Positions 1 through 6,946 of a stretch of 6,946 nucleotides of DNA are shown piece by piece; position 1 is the first letter of the stretch; each line of letters starts with the position of its first letter. Made by a program: the position numbers and the translations under genes. Under the pieces are notes generated by a model. That model was not told the DNA's origin, did not search any database, and was given only the letters and a program-made list of their open reading frames with translations. The stretch is from Paraspadella gotoi. Lineage: Eukaryota > Animalia > Chaetognatha. Where the stretch lies: contig JBJCIZ010000138.1 of the NCBI GenBank assembly GCA_051294375.1, forward strand, positions 1 through 6,946. Reading direction: 5' to 3'.

Positions 1-1
1 C

Positions 2-328
2 GATTTCATTTAAAGTTTTTTGAGCGAACAGATCTCCTCGTTGAATCTTAAACATCGCCCAAAGGACCAGGTTTGTATTTTCGTCGTCGATAAATTGAAT
101 TCTTTTTCTTTCGGCTTCGACGTCCGCCGCAGGGTTTTCTGCCAGTTTCGTCTCGACAGCGGTTTCAATTCTTGCCATCTCCGAGTCGTTGCTTCTGGCT
201 TGTTCGAGGGACTCTTCCGCAGAACTCGGCATCCTTTGATTAACCTCTTGTTTCATTCGAGTTTTTATAACGTAGGTAATTTGGCTATGGCCACGAATCC
301 AATGATCAAAGTCTTGTTCTCTTGACAT
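2..328 (-). CDS. Family A small helical protein (A3), 3' end runs off the window; absent from the ORF track
   Basis: ATG at 328, open to the edge: MSREQDFDHWIRGHSQITYVIKTRMKQEVNQRMPSSAEESLEQARSNDSEMARIETAVETKLAENPAADVEAERKRIQFIDDENTNLVLWAMFKIQRGDLFAQKTLNEI. Aligns with 3195..2761 (RMPSSAEESLE/RLPGCVEECIE; NPAADV/NPTANV; RGDLF/RGCIF). Confidence 0.8.
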   Translation of the reverse strand, partial: MSREQDFDHWIRGHSQITYVIKTRMKQEVNQRMPSSAEESLEQARSNDSEMARIETAVETKLAENPAADVEAERKRIQFIDDENTNLVLWAMFKIQRGDLFAQKTLNEI

Positions 329-438
329 ACTTTGATAAGCTTAATAAATGAATAAACAGATAAATAAACATTTCAATTAATAACGAATGGAATACACCAA
401 ATATAGGCAATTGATGATGATGACCGTTTACAGGTTTG

Positions 439-771
439 TTAAAGAGAATTCTCTCTTTCAAGAGTCTCCATCNNNNNNNNNNGCGCTTCATAAAACCGGA
501 GATAAATGCTAGCGTNNNNNNNNNNGATCTTCAGAGCCTCCCCGATCAGCCGTACGATGTCGGTTGACTTTTTCACTTCCTTTCTGATTTCAGCAATGGT
601 TCGAGGAACTTGTCTTCTGATCCCTTCTTGCTCTAGGTTCCATAGGGCATTTTCCCTGATAGTCAGATCGATGATGGATTTTGTCTTCTCTTGACCCCAT
701 GGCTTTTCGTTGAGCTGCATCCAGTCTCTGTTTAATTGATCTCGAATTTTGTTAAAAGCAATGAAATCCAT
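439..771 (-). CDS. Family B small helical protein (B3), 110 aa, spans two N runs
   Basis: TATTTCAG acceptor ending at 777, 5 nt before the ATG. WxxL-x12-IID-x3-RE has identical spacing to WxxL-x12-ILD-x3-RE in 3632..3291. Confidence 0.8.
   Translation of the reverse strand: MDFIAFNKIRDQLNRDWMQLNEKPWGQEKTKSIIDLTIRENALWNLEQEGIRRQVPRTIAEIRKEVKKSTDIVRLIGEALKIXXXXASIYLRFYEAXXXXMETLERENSL
473..525. other. Two 10-N gaps (473-482, 516-525)
   Basis: Seen directly; they indicate low-quality or masked sequence. Confidence 0.95.
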
Positions 772-852
772 TTTACCTGAAATAAGTTGATTATCAAGAT
801 ATCAAAAAATGTCATTTGCTTTGACTTGACCAAAAAATAAAGAACAGGTAAG

Positions 853-1119
853 TTAGCAAGGTAAATTCATTACAGTTTTGGTTCCGAGTGAAAATATATC
901 TCTTTTGCTCTTCCAGGATTTTCGCCCATCTGGTAAGTTGTGCAATTGTCTTGAATTCTCGTTCATCAGCACCATGGATCCCATACTCTTGAATTCTTCG
1001 GACCAAGTTGTCTTCTCTCTTCTGGATTTCATCCAGTGCGTCTTCAAGATTGGTAGGTAGCCAGAATATCGCGTTTTCTCTGGCATATTTTTTGAAGTTT
1101 CTTCTCTCACTTCAGACAT
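853..1119 (-). pseudogene. Family A copy (A5), frameshifted (pseudogene or sequence error); 3' end uncertain (about 870 to 812)
   Basis: ATTTCAG acceptor at 1141, ATG at 1119. After one frameshift near 1100 it reads NFKKYARENAIFWLPTNLEDALDEIQ...QLTRWAKILEEQKRYIFTR (frame of ORF 812..1006), matching both family A motifs. Confidence 0.65.
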
Positions 1120-1173
1120 TTTTTAATAATTAGTGAGAAGCTGAAATTTAGAAAAAGGTAAGTATAAAAAATT

Positions 1174-1470
1174 TCAACAATACTCAGGAATTCTGTAAAT
1201 TCTGGTGGCGAATATTTTTCCATCTTTTTCCAAAATGTCCGGCCATTTCCTCTACACTTAATGCGATATTGAATATTCTGCTCTGCTTCTGGCATTCGAT
1301 ACTTCGTTTTGTCCTTTCTCCTTTCGTCCCCTTTTCAATTTCTTGTTCTTCTTGAGCCAATTCCTTTTCAAAGCCTCTCAAGTCTTTTAAAGCTCTTTCC
1401 AACGAATCCGGGACCAAATGATCGGCAAAAGTCTCATTTTCTCGAACGTAAAACTCAGAATTTATGCCAT
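1174..1470 (-). pseudogene. Family A copy (A4), multiple frameshifts
   Basis: TTACAG|A|ATG at 1470, followed by GCA TAA in that frame. Another frame gives FYVRENETFADHLVPDSLERALKDLRGFEKELAQ (compare APDCVEKCFDLIKNYSLELKQ). A downstream shifted segment gives RKWPDILEKDGKIFA (compare EKWKKIRLAEGRIFN). Confidence 0.65.
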
Positions 1471-1555
1471 TCTGTAACTAAAGGTAAGTGAATTGATAAT
1501 TGATATAAATCACTAATCCGGAATGTCTAATAAAGTAAGTTTGTTTATATTTTCA

Positions 1556-1895
1556 TTAAACGTTCTTTTGCCTGATCCTGGAGTTCCTTTGCCCGGCTTT
1601 CATTTCATCATAAATTTCACCAAGATCTGGTCTTTTGCGTTTCGCATTCCTTGCCAATTTTTGGCGATCTTCCAATTCTTGAATGTCCTTGTACAGTTCG
1701 GACGCCTCGATGGCTTTATTGCCTCTCATCCTTTCCTCTCTTTTCCTCCTTTTTCTTCCGGATTCGAATTTCATATTCTCCGAAAGACTATGCTCTCAAC
1801 CGCAGAATTTCTTTCAAACGATCTTTGATATTCCTCGCTCTCCCAATCGCGAGCAATCTCATCTTGAATCTCGGAATGGATTTCATTTGAGCCAT
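1556..1895 (-). pseudogene. Family B copy (B4), about 2 frameshifts
   Basis: TATTCAG acceptor at 1913, ATG at 1895. A shifted frame gives IQDEIARDW (compare IRDQLNRDW in B3). ORF 1556..1774 KDIQELEDRQKLARNAKRKRPDLGEIYDE aligns ungapped to B2 KDVRNALGWKKTAVMLKFHQKKKTETYNE. Confidence 0.65.
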
Positions 1896-1944
1896 TGTAG
1901 GCAAGTATAGAGCTGAATAAATTTATTTAAAAATAAGACAATTA

Positions 1945-2298
1945 TTAGTGAAAGAAGGCGAACCGAATAACTTTGAGGTAAGTTTGAGTTATTATTCTCA
2001 TGGCAATTCTTCCATTATCGTCTCGACACTCTTCTTTATTGAAGATGCGCCCTTCAGCAAGTCGAATCTTCTTCCATTTCTCGATGAAGCATATTTCCTC
2101 TTCCAAGAATTTGATTCGTTCGTCTTGACCTTCAGCGACTTCCTGCAATTGCTTCAGTTCCAAGGAATAGTTTTTGATGAGGTCGAAACACTTTTCAACA
2201 CAATCGGGAGCTTCATTGTTCAACTTCTCGTTCTTTTTAACTACGAATGCTCGAAAGTCCTTATATCGATAGGCAAGGTACCCACTGCAGCCTTGCAT
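1945..2298 (-). CDS. Family A protein (A2); C-terminal half of ORF 1945..2685, probably its own cistron starting MQGCSGY
   Basis: ACTTACCT at 2346-2339, a T-rich tract, CCTTCAG (2314) and TATTCAG (2304) acceptors, ATG at 2298. PDCVEKC...IKFLEEE...EKWKKI...GRIFN matches A1 PGCVEEC...IKEFEEE...ERWKQI...GCIFN. Confidence 0.8.
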   Translation of the reverse strand: MQGCSGYLAYRYKDFRAFVVKKNEKLNNEAPDCVEKCFDLIKNYSLELKQLQEVAEGQDERIKFLEEEICFIEKWKKIRLAEGRIFNKEECRDDNGRIAMRIITQTYLKVIRFAFFH

Positions 2299-2351
2299 TG
2301 TTTCTGAATATTCCTGAAGGCAAAACATAAAGTAAACAAGGTAAGTTCGAT

Positions 2352-2698
2352 TTAAGACAGGATTTGAATTTCTTCCTGTTTTCTTCTTTATATATTCATC
2401 AATCATATTGTAAATCTCATTATAAGTTTCAGTCTTTTTCTTCTGGTGAAATTTGAGCATCACAGCCGTCTTCTTCCATCCTAACGCGTTTCGGACGTCC
2501 TTTTCGGCGGCTTCCTTCAGCTTCATTTTGATGTCTTCAGGTTTGTACTTGTGCCATTCTGGATGCCGTTCGACTTTCGCCTCTTGCTCCTTCACATTGA
2601 GGTTCCTTCCGAAATGTTTGTCGTCCATTCTTTCCCTCATTCTCGTAGAGGTGTTCCCATTCTTGAAGGTATCGTGCACCACCAACTGGATCGGACAT
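2352..2698 (-). pseudogene. Family B copy (B2), two apparent +1 nt frameshifts
   Basis: Begins MSDPVGGARYLQEWEHL at ATG 2698 (compare B1 MSDKVVWLWDEWRSL). Shifts into EQEAKVERHPEW...AEKDVRNALGWKKTA (compare EAEANIAYRPEW...AEKAIRLARNWMKTA). A further shift near 2380 gives KQEEIQILS* (TAA 2354-2352; compare KQEMIL). Confidence 0.7.
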
Positions 2699-2760
2699 CT
2701 TTCGAACAGGTAAGTAAGTATTAACTGTGAAGGTAAGTGTTTTAATTAAACGATCGCATC

Positions 2761-3195
2761 TCAAAATGGTAAGTTAATAAATCTTTGATCAATTAAAGAG
2801 TTCCATTGCATTTTATATAATGGAAAGTCCCACAATCTCAACTGCTTCCATTGCAGGGATTTTTTCTTTAAGGATTCAAGACTTTCGCGGTTGAAGATGC
2901 AACCTCGACTCAGATAAATTTGTTTCCATCGCTCGAGAGTCGGAAACTCCTCTTCGAATTCTTTGATCTTTTCAGTGAATTCTTTCACATTTGCCGTTGG
3001 ATTCTTTGCTTTTCTCTTCGCGATGGTCTCACGCAGCTTCTCGATCTTTGTAGTATAACTTTGCGTCAATTCGATGCATTCTTCGACGCATCCTGGGAGA
3101 CGCCTTTCCAGCTCATCCGTCTTCCGGCGTTTGAAGGCACAGAGCTCCAAATGCTCTCTGGAATAGATCCAAGATAATGGAAGTCCGTTCTGCAT
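2761..3195 (-). CDS. Family A protein (A1), 144 aa, likely start MQNGLP
   Basis: Intact ORF; TTTATTTACAG acceptor at 3210 precedes ATG 3195. The upstream 33 codons of ORF 2761..3294 are AT-rich spacer. Clear paralog of A2 and A3. Confidence 0.85.
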   Translation of the reverse strand: MQNGLPLSWIYSREHLELCAFKRRKTDELERRLPGCVEECIELTQSYTTKIEKLRETIAKRKAKNPTANVKEFTEKIKEFEEEFPTLERWKQIYLSRGCIFNRESLESLKKKSLQWKQLRLWDFPLYKMQWNSLIDQRFINLPF

Positions 3196-3290
3196 TGTAT
3201 CCAAGAGAACTGTAAATAAATAAATTAATATTCGAACAATCCAAATCGATATTTTTGACATTGACTTCACATTAGTTTGTATGAATTCAT

Positions 3291-3632
3291 TCATTCATGA
3301 AATGTTTTTAGAATCATCTCTTGCTTTTCGATGCGTTCCTGCATCATTTCAATAATAGTTTCAAAGGTCTTAGCCCTTTTGGGTTTTTCTTTTCTCAGGA
3401 TCTCCGCTGTCTTCATCCAATTCCTGGCAAGACGAATTGCCTTTTCTGCTTCATCTTCAGGACCTTTGTTCTCTCCTTGGAGGATCTTTTTCACCCACTC
3501 CGGTCTGTAGGCTATATTTGCTTCTGCTTCTCGGAGAATCACGTCCAGGATCTTCCTGTTCCTGTTTTCGGTCTCTTTCTGCAGCTTAAGACTTCTCCAT
3601 TCGTCCCATAGCCAAACGACTTTGTCAGACAT
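3291..3632 (-). CDS. Family B protein (B1), 113 aa
   Basis: Intact K/E-rich ORF preceded by ATACTTACCTTCAG...TATTTAGCAAATG; paralogous to B2, B3 and B4. Confidence 0.85.
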   Translation of the reverse strand: MSDKVVWLWDEWRSLKLQKETENRNRKILDVILREAEANIAYRPEWVKKILQGENKGPEDEAEKAIRLARNWMKTAEILRKEKPKRAKTFETIIEMMQERIEKQEMILKTFHE

Positions 3633-3719
3633 TTGCTAAATAAATCCTGAAGGTAAGTATATTGAAAATAATAACTTTGAATTGCAATAAAATTGTAGTG
3701 ATAAATGAACAATCACTGA

Positions 3720-3915
3720 TCAGTTTTTTTCCGTTTTTCGTGTAGAGTTTTTTGTCTCTTGATCTGGGATGGGTGCCTGGATCATCATCTTTTTACTTTC
3801 TAGTAAGATCAAGGATCGCTTTGCGCTTGCCTTTTCAGGATCGGAATATGAAACTCCATGGGTTTCGCCATAACAGATGCCATTTGCCAAACATATAGCC
3901 GCTAAATGAAGTCAT
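3720..3915 (-). pseudogene. Probable short cistron, frame-disrupted, family unassigned
   Basis: TTATTCAG|GAAAATG at 3915 and coding-like composition between two AT-rich spacers. The ATG frame stops after 26 aa; another frame stays open to TGA at 3722-3720 (...DPEKASAKRSLILLESKKMMIQAPIPDQETKNSTRKTEKN). Confidence 0.4.
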
Positions 3916-4005
3916 TTTCCTGAATAATCAAGAATAATTAATAATAACAGGATTCAATTTCAATGGTTTGACAGCCAATTGAACAAATATTTGATGAGAT
4001 AATGT

Positions 4006-4329
4006 TTAAAATGTTTTCCTTTTGCGATATAACGTCTGTTTTGTTACTGGTTTTGAGGCGCGGTGAACAAAGTCTCGAATTACTGCGTAAATGTCTTCGA
4101 GAGCCTCTCGTTGCATGTCAGCGTATTTTTCCATTGACGCTGTAGGAATACTGCCCATGGGAAGATTCTGTATCGTCCTCCTGTCCACGGTTTCGTTCAG
4201 CTTCTTTTCCGTCCGTTCTTTCCAGCGCCCGTACTCCATCACAAATTCTTCTTTGAAGGGATCTGGGATGTGTTCGAGTAGAATTCTCATGTGGAGTTCT
4301 CCCTCGATTTCAATATAGTTTCCGGACAT
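4006..4329 (-). CDS. Family C protein (C2), 107 aa, start MSGNYIEI
   Basis: Intact ORF; ACTTACCTTTTTTAG upstream of ATG 4329; paralog at 4646..4407; basic C-terminus RKRK. Confidence 0.85.
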   Translation of the reverse strand: MSGNYIEIEGELHMRILLEHIPDPFKEEFVMEYGRWKERTEKKLNETVDRRTIQNLPMGSIPTASMEKYADMQREALEDIYAVIRDFVHRASKPVTKQTLYRKRKTF

Positions 4330-4406
4330 TTTGAATGTGAATAACAAACTAAAAAAGGTAAGTAAATCAAACAATTCGTACACAAAGTTTTATGAATAAT
4401 TTCGTT

Positions 4407-4646
4407 TTACTTCTCGGCTCTGTCTCGTAAGTCAATGATAATCTTTTTTAACATTTCTCGCCTCTTTTTCATGGCATGTTGCATATATAAGTTCTTTGCT
4501 TATTCTGATAAGTTCAACGATTCGATTTGATCCATTTTGAGCATCGTTTCGTCGTACCAATGATTGTATCTCTCGTGAAACTCCGCTAAGTGTTCCATTG
4601 GAACGAGATCCATCATCCTATTGAACAGGACTCGCCGAGATGACAT
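4407..4646 (-). pseudogene. Family C copy (C1) with one in-frame TAA at 4502-4500; absent from the ORF track
   Basis: MSSRRVLFNRMMDLVPMEHLAEFHERYNHWYDETMLKMDQIESLNLSE*AKNLYMQHAMKKRREMLKKIIIDLRDRAEK*. Shares P-x5-EF-x3-Y-x2-W-x3-T-x2-K and RExLxxI-x4-RD with C2. TTTATAG acceptor near 4665. Confidence 0.75.
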
Positions 4647-4968
4647 GATCCCAAAGTTGATTCTCTATAAAGAAATGTTTATTATTATTCCATTGCCATC
4701 AGGTAAGTATTTGTATTGAAATATTGACTTTATTAATTCTTTTCCTCTGCAGGATCGTTACCAGAATTTCGTCGAATTTTCTTAATGTTGAGCAAGTGTC
4801 CGGAAATCCAATAGATGCTTAAAGTTCTTGTATCGCCGGAAGCTTAAAGGTAGGTTTGCAAGTTTATTGAAAACAATTCAAAACAACTTAAAACAATGCA
4901 AGAGATCAAAACGCCAGTCTCCCGCCTAAATTTTGTGCCATAATGCGAATCTTATGAGAAATAAATTC

Positions 4969-5166
4969 TCATGGAGTTTTGCAGTAAGTGTCTGCTGACA
5001 TGATATGAGACGGAATGATGCGTCCGATCTCCGTCTCTGAAAGAATCGTAGCTAAACGACGTCGGTAAAGGTTTACTTCAAAAGAGATTTCGATTGAAGA
5101 TTCCGGCGGACGCGTGATTGGCGGCGTCGGCGGCGCCTGATAATTTGAATCGGATTTCTTTTCCAT
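4969..5166 (-). CDS. Hypothetical Pro-containing ORF, possibly the 3' part of a longer disrupted gene
   Basis: 65-aa ORF in GC-richer sequence; no clear acceptor before the ATG; faint resemblance of RPPESSIEISF to RPSSPGTVVEISW in the upstream gene. Confidence 0.3.
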   Translation of the reverse strand: MEKKSDSNYQAPPTPPITRPPESSIEISFEVNLYRRRLATILSETEIGRIIPSHIMSADTYCKTP

Positions 5167-5219
5167 TCCTTTGCGACTTCACCGAACTTGGTACTAGCGA
5201 TAATTCTGTCCGAGCTTGA

Positions 5220-5264
5220 TACAAGTGGTGACTCTGTCCAAATCCACTACAAGTGGCAACTCTG
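5220..5264. repeat. Short direct repeat, 17 nt x2, period 28
   Basis: tacaagtggtgactctg (5220-5236) and tacaagtggcaactctg (5248-5264), 15/17 identical. Confidence 0.8.
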
Positions 5265-5321
5265 GCTGAATCCGTTGGTACGACGGTCTCTTCGTACTTG
5301 GCTTTGTGGATTCCGTGGACA

Positions 5322-5478
5322 CCTTATTTTACGAAGAGCGACGGTTCCTGATCTGTAACGATAAAGCTTCTCAACATCTCCAATGGCATCAAAGTTTGAG
5401 GATAGTCTTAATAATTAGTTGCTTGCGAGAAGCTTTACCTCCGGTCGATTTAGATGCGGTTTGTTAGGTGGAAGCCAT
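5322..5478 (-). pseudogene. H3: Degenerate histone H3 N-terminal fragment (about residues 1-52)
   Basis: MAST*QTASKSTGGKASRKQLIIKTILKL, frameshift, DAIGDVEKLYRYRSGTVALRKIR, versus canonical [53 protein letters not shown]. No histone fold follows. Confidence 0.9.
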
Positions 5479-5627
5479 GGCGAATAGTGGGTGAAGTCTG
5501 CAGTCTGTCTAATATATCTGTCAATCAGGTTAAGACAACATTAGCAATGTTTGACTTCATTATAAAAGAAAATACGGTAACAAAGTTCGGGACACACGAC
5601 TTTTTTTAAAAAAAAAAGGAGGAACGC

Positions 5628-6662
5628 TCAATTTGGCTGTTGGGGAAGCCATCCCAATCGCTCCTTCACTGGGCGACGGCGCCTGTTCTCCTCGGCGTTA
5701 GGACGTTGGCTTGATAAACTCTCGCGTAGATCACGGACCGCCTCGCCCACGCTCTTCGCGATGTTGAAATCGTGCGGCATCTCGCGCCTTGTCACCGTCA
5801 CGCGTGGATGCGTTTCAAATACGACTTCCTGTTTAATAGCATTTTTTATATAATAAATTTGTTTGTCAGCATCCTTCCTATAATAAATTCGGTTCTTACG
5901 CAATCGGAGCTGTCGCTATCAACGGCTAACGGTGGGTAGCCGAAATAGTCACGGACCGGCGTTCCCACTTCAGTCGAAGGCGAGGAAGGTGGGGACGGTG
6001 AAGGGGCGCGGATCCTTTGCGCCATGAACGGACGACGAACCGAGGCGTTTTGTTCGTCGTCCGGTTGAGAAACCGGGGTTTCCGTCGCCGGAGCGGACGG
6101 CGGCATAATGCGGATCCTGTGTGCCATGAACGGGCGACGAACCGGGAAATCCTGCTCGTCGTTAGGTCGAGAGACCGGGGTTTCCGTTTCCGGCGCAGAC
6201 GGCGGCATCATGCGGATCGGACGACGAACCGAGGCGTCCTGCTCGCCGCTAGGTCGAGAGACAGGGACTTCCGTTCCTGGTGGCGGTGGTTCCACATCGA
6301 CCCATGAAATTTCAACGACTGTTCCTGGCGACGATGGTCGTGCGTTGCTCCGAACGGTTGGATCGTCTGTCCCCGGCGGCGCTGGCTCGTTCTTTGAGAG
6401 AGGTGCGACTCTCGCCGTTGGTTTGGAACAAGTGGCCGCGGCAATCTCTCTTGCCCGCTTTGACGCGTCGTCCTGAAGTGGACAATTAAACTTAACGAGA
6501 TCGTGAAAGCAAATATATTTAAGAGGCAAAAACTCTCTCTTTCTCGCTTGATAGAATTATCGTTACATGATTGGTTGGAATCAACCGATCAAAGATATAC
6601 TAATTTGATCAACCGGCTAGCTCGATAATGATTATTTCCTTTATTTTATTTACCGATGACAT
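5628..6662 (-). CDS. Pro/Arg/Ser-rich repeat protein; coding exons 6662-6654 and 6472-5628, with an apparent frameshift near 5900
   Basis: ATG TCA TCG|GTAAAT donor (6653) and CACTTCAG|GAC acceptor (6473) join in frame as MSS-DDASKRARE. ORFs 5846..6529 and 5628..5903 overlap and look like one shifted CDS. High GC. Confidence 0.65.
6008..6290 (-). repeat. Coding tandem repeat, about 3 units (102, 102 and about 87 nt)
   Basis: GCGGATC anchors at 6008, 6110 and 6212; peptide unit PPSAPxTETPVSRPxDEQDxxVRRP(FMAxR)IR. Confidence 0.9.
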
Positions 6663-6864
6663 CTTGAGAAGATGGTTGACCGCAAAAAGGAAGTTGGACT
6701 GCGACGAGAGTCAAGGAAACTTACTGAACTGGTGCCTGCGGAAAATTTCAGTAACGCAAAGTTCAATGAACGAGCATGAGAAAACGATTAAATACAGAAT
6801 TAGCATTGGTAACGCTTAAATAAACGTGAAAGACAATTGGTCTGGTAACTTTCAAATTTCGAGT

Positions 6865-6945
6865 TCAGATTTCCTCAGAGTCTTCCATTTCATGGATTTT
6901 CGTAAGAAGAGCACGATTTCTCCTGTCTCTCTTAATTTTACGAAG
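6865..6945 (-). CDS. 3' end of a possible upstream ORF (LRKIKRDRRNRALLTKIHEMEDSEEI*), weakly H3-like
   Basis: Open from the window edge to TGA at 6867-6865; LRxIxR-x6-LL has the spacing of H3 LREIRRYQKSTELL. Confidence 0.3.
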   Translation of the reverse strand, partial: LRKIKRDRRNRALLTKIHEMEDSEEI

Positions 6946-6946
6946 T

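Follow-up and report, generated by a model that had tools for sequence, protein, structure and literature searches.

How are a dozen small genes, packed head-to-tail with short spacers between them, read out, and what part is played in this by a short motif that recurs at their junctions? The question is raised by a stretch of DNA of 6,946 nucleotides (nt) from contig JBJCIZ010000138.1 (positions 1 to 6,946; hereafter, the window), the minus strand of which carries approximately 12 small open reading frames (ORFs), G1 to G12, running from position 4646 down to the window start. A sequence-only reading of this DNA had proposed that the motif ACTTACCT, a mimic of the 5' end of U1 small nuclear RNA (snRNA), marks the junctions of a polycistronic array. 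Our analysis shows that, whichever mechanism it serves, ACTTACCT is a real, selected and strand-specific junction signal. The function that fits the anatomy of the array best is that of an anti-donor guide for a spliced leader (SL) RNA, which would resolve the polycistron; judged from the sequence, we hold this reading tentatively, as plausible but somewhat short of an even chance.

A strand-specific motif identical to the 5' end of U1 snRNA

All ten exact copies of ACTTACCT announced by the sequence-only reading were found at their places in the window, every one of them on the minus strand. Only 0.05 copies would be expected: over 200 dinucleotide-preserving shuffles the mean count was 0.05, the maximum was 1, and none of the 200 reached 10. 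When up to one mismatch was allowed, there were 18 sites on the minus strand and none on the plus strand, compared with 2.8 expected; at two mismatches the strand bias was weaker (24 versus 16). The motif has sharp borders. All eight of its positions are invariant, the adjacent positions are unconserved, and repeat finding revealed no longer unit shared around the copies.

In every copy the 8-mer is identical to nt 3-10 of the U1 snRNA 5' end, and hence it is a perfect complement of the consensus splice donor. At one site the identity extends further: the minus strand at 4710-4700 reads ATACTTACCTG, the same 11 nt with which human U1 snRNA begins according to PMC3936765, in agreement with the earlier description of this site as the canonical start of U1. 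The hexamer TACCTT (UACCUU in RNA), said to be contained in several copies, is present in six of the ten, the other four having TACCTG or TACCTC. The base 3' of the motif is accordingly T in six copies, G in three and C in one, and bases 1-3 after it are enriched in T. Predicted folding leaves the copies mostly unpaired, with a mean P(unpaired) of 0.41-0.99.

The orientation of the motif gains its meaning from the coding strand, which was assigned through the paralogs within the array. By BLASTP, G5, G7 and G12 are paralogs (E 1e-12 to 1e-14, 25-34% protein identity), and G4 and G6 form a second pair (E 1e-10). Paralog pairs scored 51, 47 and 38 bits in the minus frames versus 27, 16.5 and 24 bits in the plus frames; because the scores are higher in the minus frames, the minus strand is the coding one. 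All ten copies therefore lie on the coding strand, as had been claimed.

Position of the motif relative to genes and splice acceptors

According to our stop-to-ATG calls, the 12 spacers of the array measure 54-113 nt each and 1026 nt in total, which is 23% of the interval 329-4735. All ten exact copies of ACTTACCT fall inside these spacers (P about 5e-7 under random placement). At least one copy is present in 9 of the 12, and the spacer preceding G6 contains two together with a one-mismatch copy. The assertion that the motif sits at gene junctions thus holds for every copy but not for every junction, three of the 12 spacers being without one. The copies are situated 0-66 nt downstream of stop codons and, in 9 of the 12 genes, 9-79 nt upstream of the ATG with which every ORF of the array begins.

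Followed along the coding strand, the first copy (4701-4708) lies upstream of G1, inside ATACTTACCTG, with an acceptor at 4665, 36 nt on. The copy between G1 and G2 (4356-4363) is followed after 7 nt by the acceptor 4349, and the copy between G3 and G4 (3651-3658) after 4 nt by the acceptor 3647. Between G5 and G6 there are two exact copies, one at 2731-2738, with the acceptor 2725 lying 6 nt on, and one at 2708-2715, with the G6 ATG 9 nt on; the one-mismatch copy ACTTACCA (2767-2774, minus strand) is found at the end of G5. The G6-G7 spacer has its copy at 2339-2346, 25 nt before the acceptor 2314, and the G7-G8 spacer at 1976-1983. In the spacer between G8 and G9 the copy at 1482-1489 is followed by two acceptors, 1478 and 1472, 4 and 10 nt on. 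The copy between G9 and G10 (1156-1163) precedes the acceptor 1141 by 15 nt, and in the spacer between G10 and G11 the G10 stop appears to overlap the first base of the motif (846-853). Further one-mismatch copies on the minus strand are located in or beside spacers at 859-866, 1533-1540, 1899-1906, 2712-2719 and 4848-4855.

The strongest pyrimidine-tract YAG acceptors of the minus strand, with 6-9 pyrimidines among the preceding 10 nt, directly precede 11 of the 12 ATGs, one for each of G1 to G11 (777..4666; G of the AG at 4665, 4349, 3920, 3647, 3210, 2725, 2314, 1913, 1472, 1141 and 777), and the G12 ATG is preceded only by a weak TTAAG. The AGs that the sequence-only reading had listed as candidates for SL addition (777, 1141, 1472, 1913, 2314, 3647, 4349/4350 and 4665) proved to be the strongest pyrimidine-tract sites before the respective ATGs, and the sites at 2725, 3210 and 3920 are three more of the kind. 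The distances from the motif to a strong acceptor are 4, 4, 6, 7, 9, 15, 25, 36, 63 and 69 nt. The poly(A) hexamers AATAAA or ATTAAA occur in only 4 of the 12 spacers. With lengths of 54-113 nt there is, to judge from the letters, little room in the spacers for separate promoters.

A short upstream ATG (772-822, minus strand) was also seen in the spacer between G10 and G11, between the motif and the acceptor 777; splicing at 777 would remove it.

Conservation of the motif

Conservation was assessed by comparison with contigs of the same organism only. Over the 102 nt of 2641-2742, a paralogous contig (X6 record 4, X9 record 8) shows 14 substitutions and 5 gaps relative to the window and retains both copies of ACTTACCT, those at 2708 and 2731. 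The sequence GTAAGTAAGT at 2708-2719 represents a GTAA slip: the paralogous contig is one unit shorter there, with AGGTAAGT, the plus-strand form of the motif, still kept, and beside the 4-nt GTAA deletion three of the seven adjoining bases are changed. The claim that the motif persists while the neighbouring paralogs diverge was thus upheld, given the low protein identity within the G5/G7/G12 family, the unconserved flanks and the retention of both copies in the paralogous contig.

The word depth of the array (526-4742) exceeds that of the right flank (5124-6885) by a factor of 1.5-3.4, which varies between samples, and around 1088-1119 three contigs pile up, the depth exceeding 370 in sample X1. 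Because the depth is raised and several contigs match the array in part, paralogous arrays are expected elsewhere in the genome. The extra depth is suggestive of several such arrays or of variation in copy number, and a multi-copy element is a possibility. Contigs of sample X9, the RNA nature of which is only guessed, cover genes and spacers alike, as DNA samples do.

A possible mechanism: the motif as a guide for SL RNA

The following mechanism may be proposed. The array would be transcribed as a single polycistronic RNA in a host that uses SL trans-splicing, and the downstream genes would receive the spliced leader at their own acceptors. In this RNA, the sense-strand ACTTACCT would function as an anti-donor guide and pair with the 5' splice site of the SL RNA, presumed to be the complementary AG|GUAAGU; the pairing would bring the SL RNA to the acceptor upstream of the start codon. 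Pairing between motif and SL donor would thereby play the part that U1 has in cis-splicing. A 'role reversal' of this sort was reportedly proposed by Lasda et al. in 2010 for the Ur element of C. elegans, which would pair with the SL2 donor in the part of U1. Since the spacers hold few canonical poly(A) hexamers, the upstream message would probably have its 3' end formed in a step coupled to the trans-splicing event.

The idea can be taken further. At most junctions the pre-mRNA might supply a U1 of its own, in the form of an exactly copied U1 5' end; this would pair with the SL donor beside the acceptor, replacing both U1 and a handover driven by poly(A) signals, and would in this way resolve an operon of fast-evolving small genes. 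We regard this extended form as possible but doubtful. If the guide mechanism is true, an element that copies 8 nt of the U1 5' end perfectly and without variation would make the model of pairing with the SL donor directly testable, and the motif would serve as a sequence tag by which downstream operon genes of this organism could be found.

Several observations weigh against such a guide. Even at one mismatch the motif is absent from the spacers preceding G3, G5 and G12 and, because these three junctions of the 12 have equally good acceptors, it is not obligatory. In five of the ten copies, no more than 4-7 nt separate the motif from the first AG on its 3' side; a branch site could not be accommodated between the two, and the guide duplex would come to lie atop the 3' splice-site region. 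The base that follows the motif, in the proportions given above, is equally compatible with the M at -3 of ordinary plus-strand donors and with an SL donor. Within the organism, a third paralog has CGTAAGT at the corresponding place of the plus strand, and one sample (X5) has an A at 1977, by which the copy at 1976-1983 becomes ACTTACTT. The likeness to the Ur element is also incomplete in two respects. Ur elements lie about 50 nt from the acceptor, compared with 4-69 nt for the motif of the array, and they are preceded by a short stem-loop, whereas no recurrent stem-loop was found upstream of ACTTACCT at its ten sites (fold z -2.8 to +2.7).

An Rfam scan of the window with E up to 5 gave four weak, unrelated matches and no snRNA or SL RNA family. 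Full-text literature searches found no description of the motif or of a donor-complementary junction element, and a literature search for the ascidian SL donor gave no useful result.

Alternative explanations

The motif could instead be an oriented DNA element, namely a core promoter or a transcription-factor site, each small gene having a promoter of its own in its spacer. Such an element may well be a sharp 8-bp motif of fixed orientation that, in nine of the 12 genes, lies 9-79 nt upstream of the ATG; several copies in some spacers (2708, 2731, 2767) are in keeping with it, and the position within the spacer varies like that of upstream promoter boxes in compact genomes. The exact identity with the U1 5' end, however, would then be a coincidence, and the strong acceptors right after the motif would be left unexplained. 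Moreover, three genes of the same families do without the motif, the spacers of 54-113 nt must also house the 3' untranslated region (UTR) of the upstream gene, and between G10 and G11 the stop codon of G10 appears to overlap the motif itself. We consider this explanation unlikely.

Quite unlikely, too, is that ACTTACCT belongs to the upstream gene as a 3'-UTR or 3'-end signal, i.e. an 8-nt site recognised by a small RNA or an RNA-binding protein, or a substitute for the poly(A) signal. The next ATG is sometimes only 9-18 nt away, so that the 3' UTR would overlap the 5' end of the next gene, and the distance from the stop codon varies as much as that to the acceptor, even though the motif does follow stop codons by 0-66 nt. 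Sites of this class are typically 8 nt long and clustered, and canonical hexamers are absent from 8 of the 12 spacers; to our knowledge, no small-RNA or protein site matches the motif.

If, on the other hand, the plus strand were the functional one, AGGTAAGT would provide perfect U1 sites in an antisense RNA, either as real donors of a spliced transcript or as unpaired donors through which U1 silences or shortens read-through transcripts. The borders of the 8-mer coincide with the stretch paired by U1, and the plus-strand 9-mer MAG|GTAAGT, the textbook donor consensus, is present in nine of the ten copies (P about 0.006). That we find this distinctly improbable is due to several features. The donors of the two cis introns of the host in the window (GTAAGA and GTAAAT) are imperfect, so that ten invariant sites do not resemble ordinary donors. 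Apart from mirror-image similarity, no coding signal is seen on the plus strand, and its paralog similarity is weaker than that of the minus strand; no conserved sequence precedes the GT, and neither an Sm site nor a match to an SL RNA family follows it downstream.

The motif might also be a 3' splice-site module, in which CTTAC would serve as branch site and be fused, through the start of a pyrimidine tract, to the acceptor. The loose branch consensus is yUnAy, which CTTAC fits, and T is enriched in the three bases after the motif. Six of the ten copies have their first AG 4-9 nt on, but by our own estimate these distances are within chance for the composition, and those of 25-69 nt in four copies do not suit a fused module. 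Conservation also extends over eight positions, three of them past the candidate branch A, and the motif is in neither of the two cis introns (0/2), so a module of this kind is highly improbable.

Rejected outright were a U1 gene or plus-strand SL RNA genes (no Rfam match, no conserved exon and no Sm-like site by eye), a relic of a duplicated unit (flanks unconserved, paralogs with only 25-34% protein identity), a general branch site, since both introns of the neighbouring three-exon gene described below lack ACTTACCT, and tRNA punctuation (no tRNAs found in the window).

Genes of the array and their products

All members of the array lie on the minus strand. G1 (4410-4646) is a small ORF with a frame broken by indels in the window and is followed by G2 (4006-4329), an intact ORF of 107 amino acids (aa), and by G3 (3720-3933), again small and with a broken frame. 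G4 (3291-3632) encodes 113 aa; its paralog G6 (2350-2698) has a broken frame and an uncertain end. Between them lies G5 (2761-3195, 144 aa). The true stop of its paralog G7 (1945-2298) is probably near 1999, if a 1-nt difference at 2031 is allowed. Three small ORFs come next: G8 (1556-1901) with a broken frame, G9 (1184-1470) with an indel close to the start, and G10 (853-1119), in which contigs differ by 2 nt at 1103 and by 1 nt at 903. G11 (439-771) encodes 110 aa and contains two internal runs of 10 N each, at 473-482 and 516-525. G12 (2-328), the third member of the G5 family, continues off the window.

The window and the short-read contigs of the same organism, which come from 4-6 samples, differ by many indels of 1-2 nt (12 itemised and 49 more). 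Sites within 526-4900 include 630, 813, 903, 1103, 2031, 2628, 2871, 4057, 4486 and 4503. The indels break the frames of G1, G6, G8, G9 and G10, which looks like the noise of an unpolished long-read assembly rather than pseudogenes, and because of them the ends of the array genes are approximate. As the raw window stands, a motif is read through by the frames of G6/G7 and G10.

A possible degraded extra gene, G0 (4736-4860, minus strand), was noticed upstream of G1, and the one-mismatch copy at 4848-4855 that precedes it reads ACCTACCT. In the G0 region, an X9 contig differs from the window by 16 substitutions and 8 gaps in 270 nt.

A Pfam scan of 11 ORFs gave nothing above the cut-off, and homologs of G4 were not found. 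From the collections searched, a profile of the G5/G7/G12 family retrieved a sole relative, P0001 (85 aa, unnamed), together with one spurious repeat protein; P0001 and G12 have a KLAENP-ADV stretch in common. Neither metagenome_contigs nor viral_contigs yielded relatives of the family, a blastn search of phages was without a match, and the Atlas search gave no usable one. Exact 40-mers of the window had no counterpart in viral_contigs, metagenome_contigs or genome_contigs. The predicted structure of G5 is a helical bundle with a predicted local distance difference test (pLDDT) score of 70, for which Foldseek found no match at E<=0.001.

Neighbouring gene and host

Beyond the array, the minus strand carries a three-exon gene of about 260 aa with exons at 6662-6654, 6472-5900 and 5828-5628, separated by GT..AG introns of 181 and 71 nt. 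Because the exons join into one open frame, the host is an intron-bearing eukaryote. The donors of the two introns, which stand after GC and CG, respectively, are ordinary, imperfect ones. From contig sets of 77-242 Mb, the genome size would be on the order of 1e8 bases.

The exons of this gene (5628-6662) are GC-rich (55-63% GC) and its introns AT-rich. Its sequence includes 102-nt tandem repeats (6008-6211) that code for a repetitive, proline-rich peptide; a third unit, incomplete, extends as far as 6280. A search revealed no homologs.

Comparison with known systems

As in operons resolved by SL trans-splicing, the array consists of 12 co-oriented ORFs with spacers of 54-113 nt and has an unpaired acceptor before 11 of the 12 ATGs. 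With operons of the Ciona type and of the C. elegans SL1 type it has in common the very short spacers, the acceptor just before the downstream ATG and the small number of poly(A) hexamers. Those operons string together unrelated genes, whereas paralogs are strung together here, and no conserved junction motif is described for them as far as the literature was searched. With U1 snRNA, the likeness is confined to the 5' end: all copies are identical to it over 8 nt, and the site at 4710-4700 over 11 nt. By the Rfam scan there is no U1 fold or gene in the window, and these letters sit in an array of protein genes.

The closest comparison is with the Ur element of C. elegans SL2-type operons, reported also from T. 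spiralis and B. malayi. Ur elements are described as directing SL2 to the downstream acceptor (PMC7668243; 10.1101/642082), and the Ur motif is given as TAYYTT (PMC7668243), of which the TACCTT in six of the ten array copies is one form. According to PMC7668243, TATTTT makes up 66-80% and TACCTT 0.6-2.5% of the Ur candidates of T. spiralis, and that species has intercistronic distances, reckoned from the poly(A) site, of about 74-213 nt, compared with array spacers of 54-113 nt measured from stop to ATG.

Both elements are sense-strand spacer elements between co-oriented genes, upstream of a trans-splice acceptor (a candidate one in the array), but the Ur element is a degenerate U-rich 6-mer, and the motif of the array has eight invariant positions equal to the U1 5' end. 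The proposal of the sequence-only reading that ACTTACCT is an extended Ur element was sustained in part. The co-oriented array, the short spacers, the sense-strand motif and the unpaired acceptors agree with it; the acceptor distances, the missing stem-loop and the three junctions without a motif do not. Support for the idea that an intercistronic element acts as U1, through pairing with the SL RNA donor, comes mostly from in-vitro experiments on a nematode motif that is short and degenerate. If the guide mechanism is true, the array would present a much sharper variant of the Ur-type element and would show how far simple base pairing can encode the resolution of an operon.

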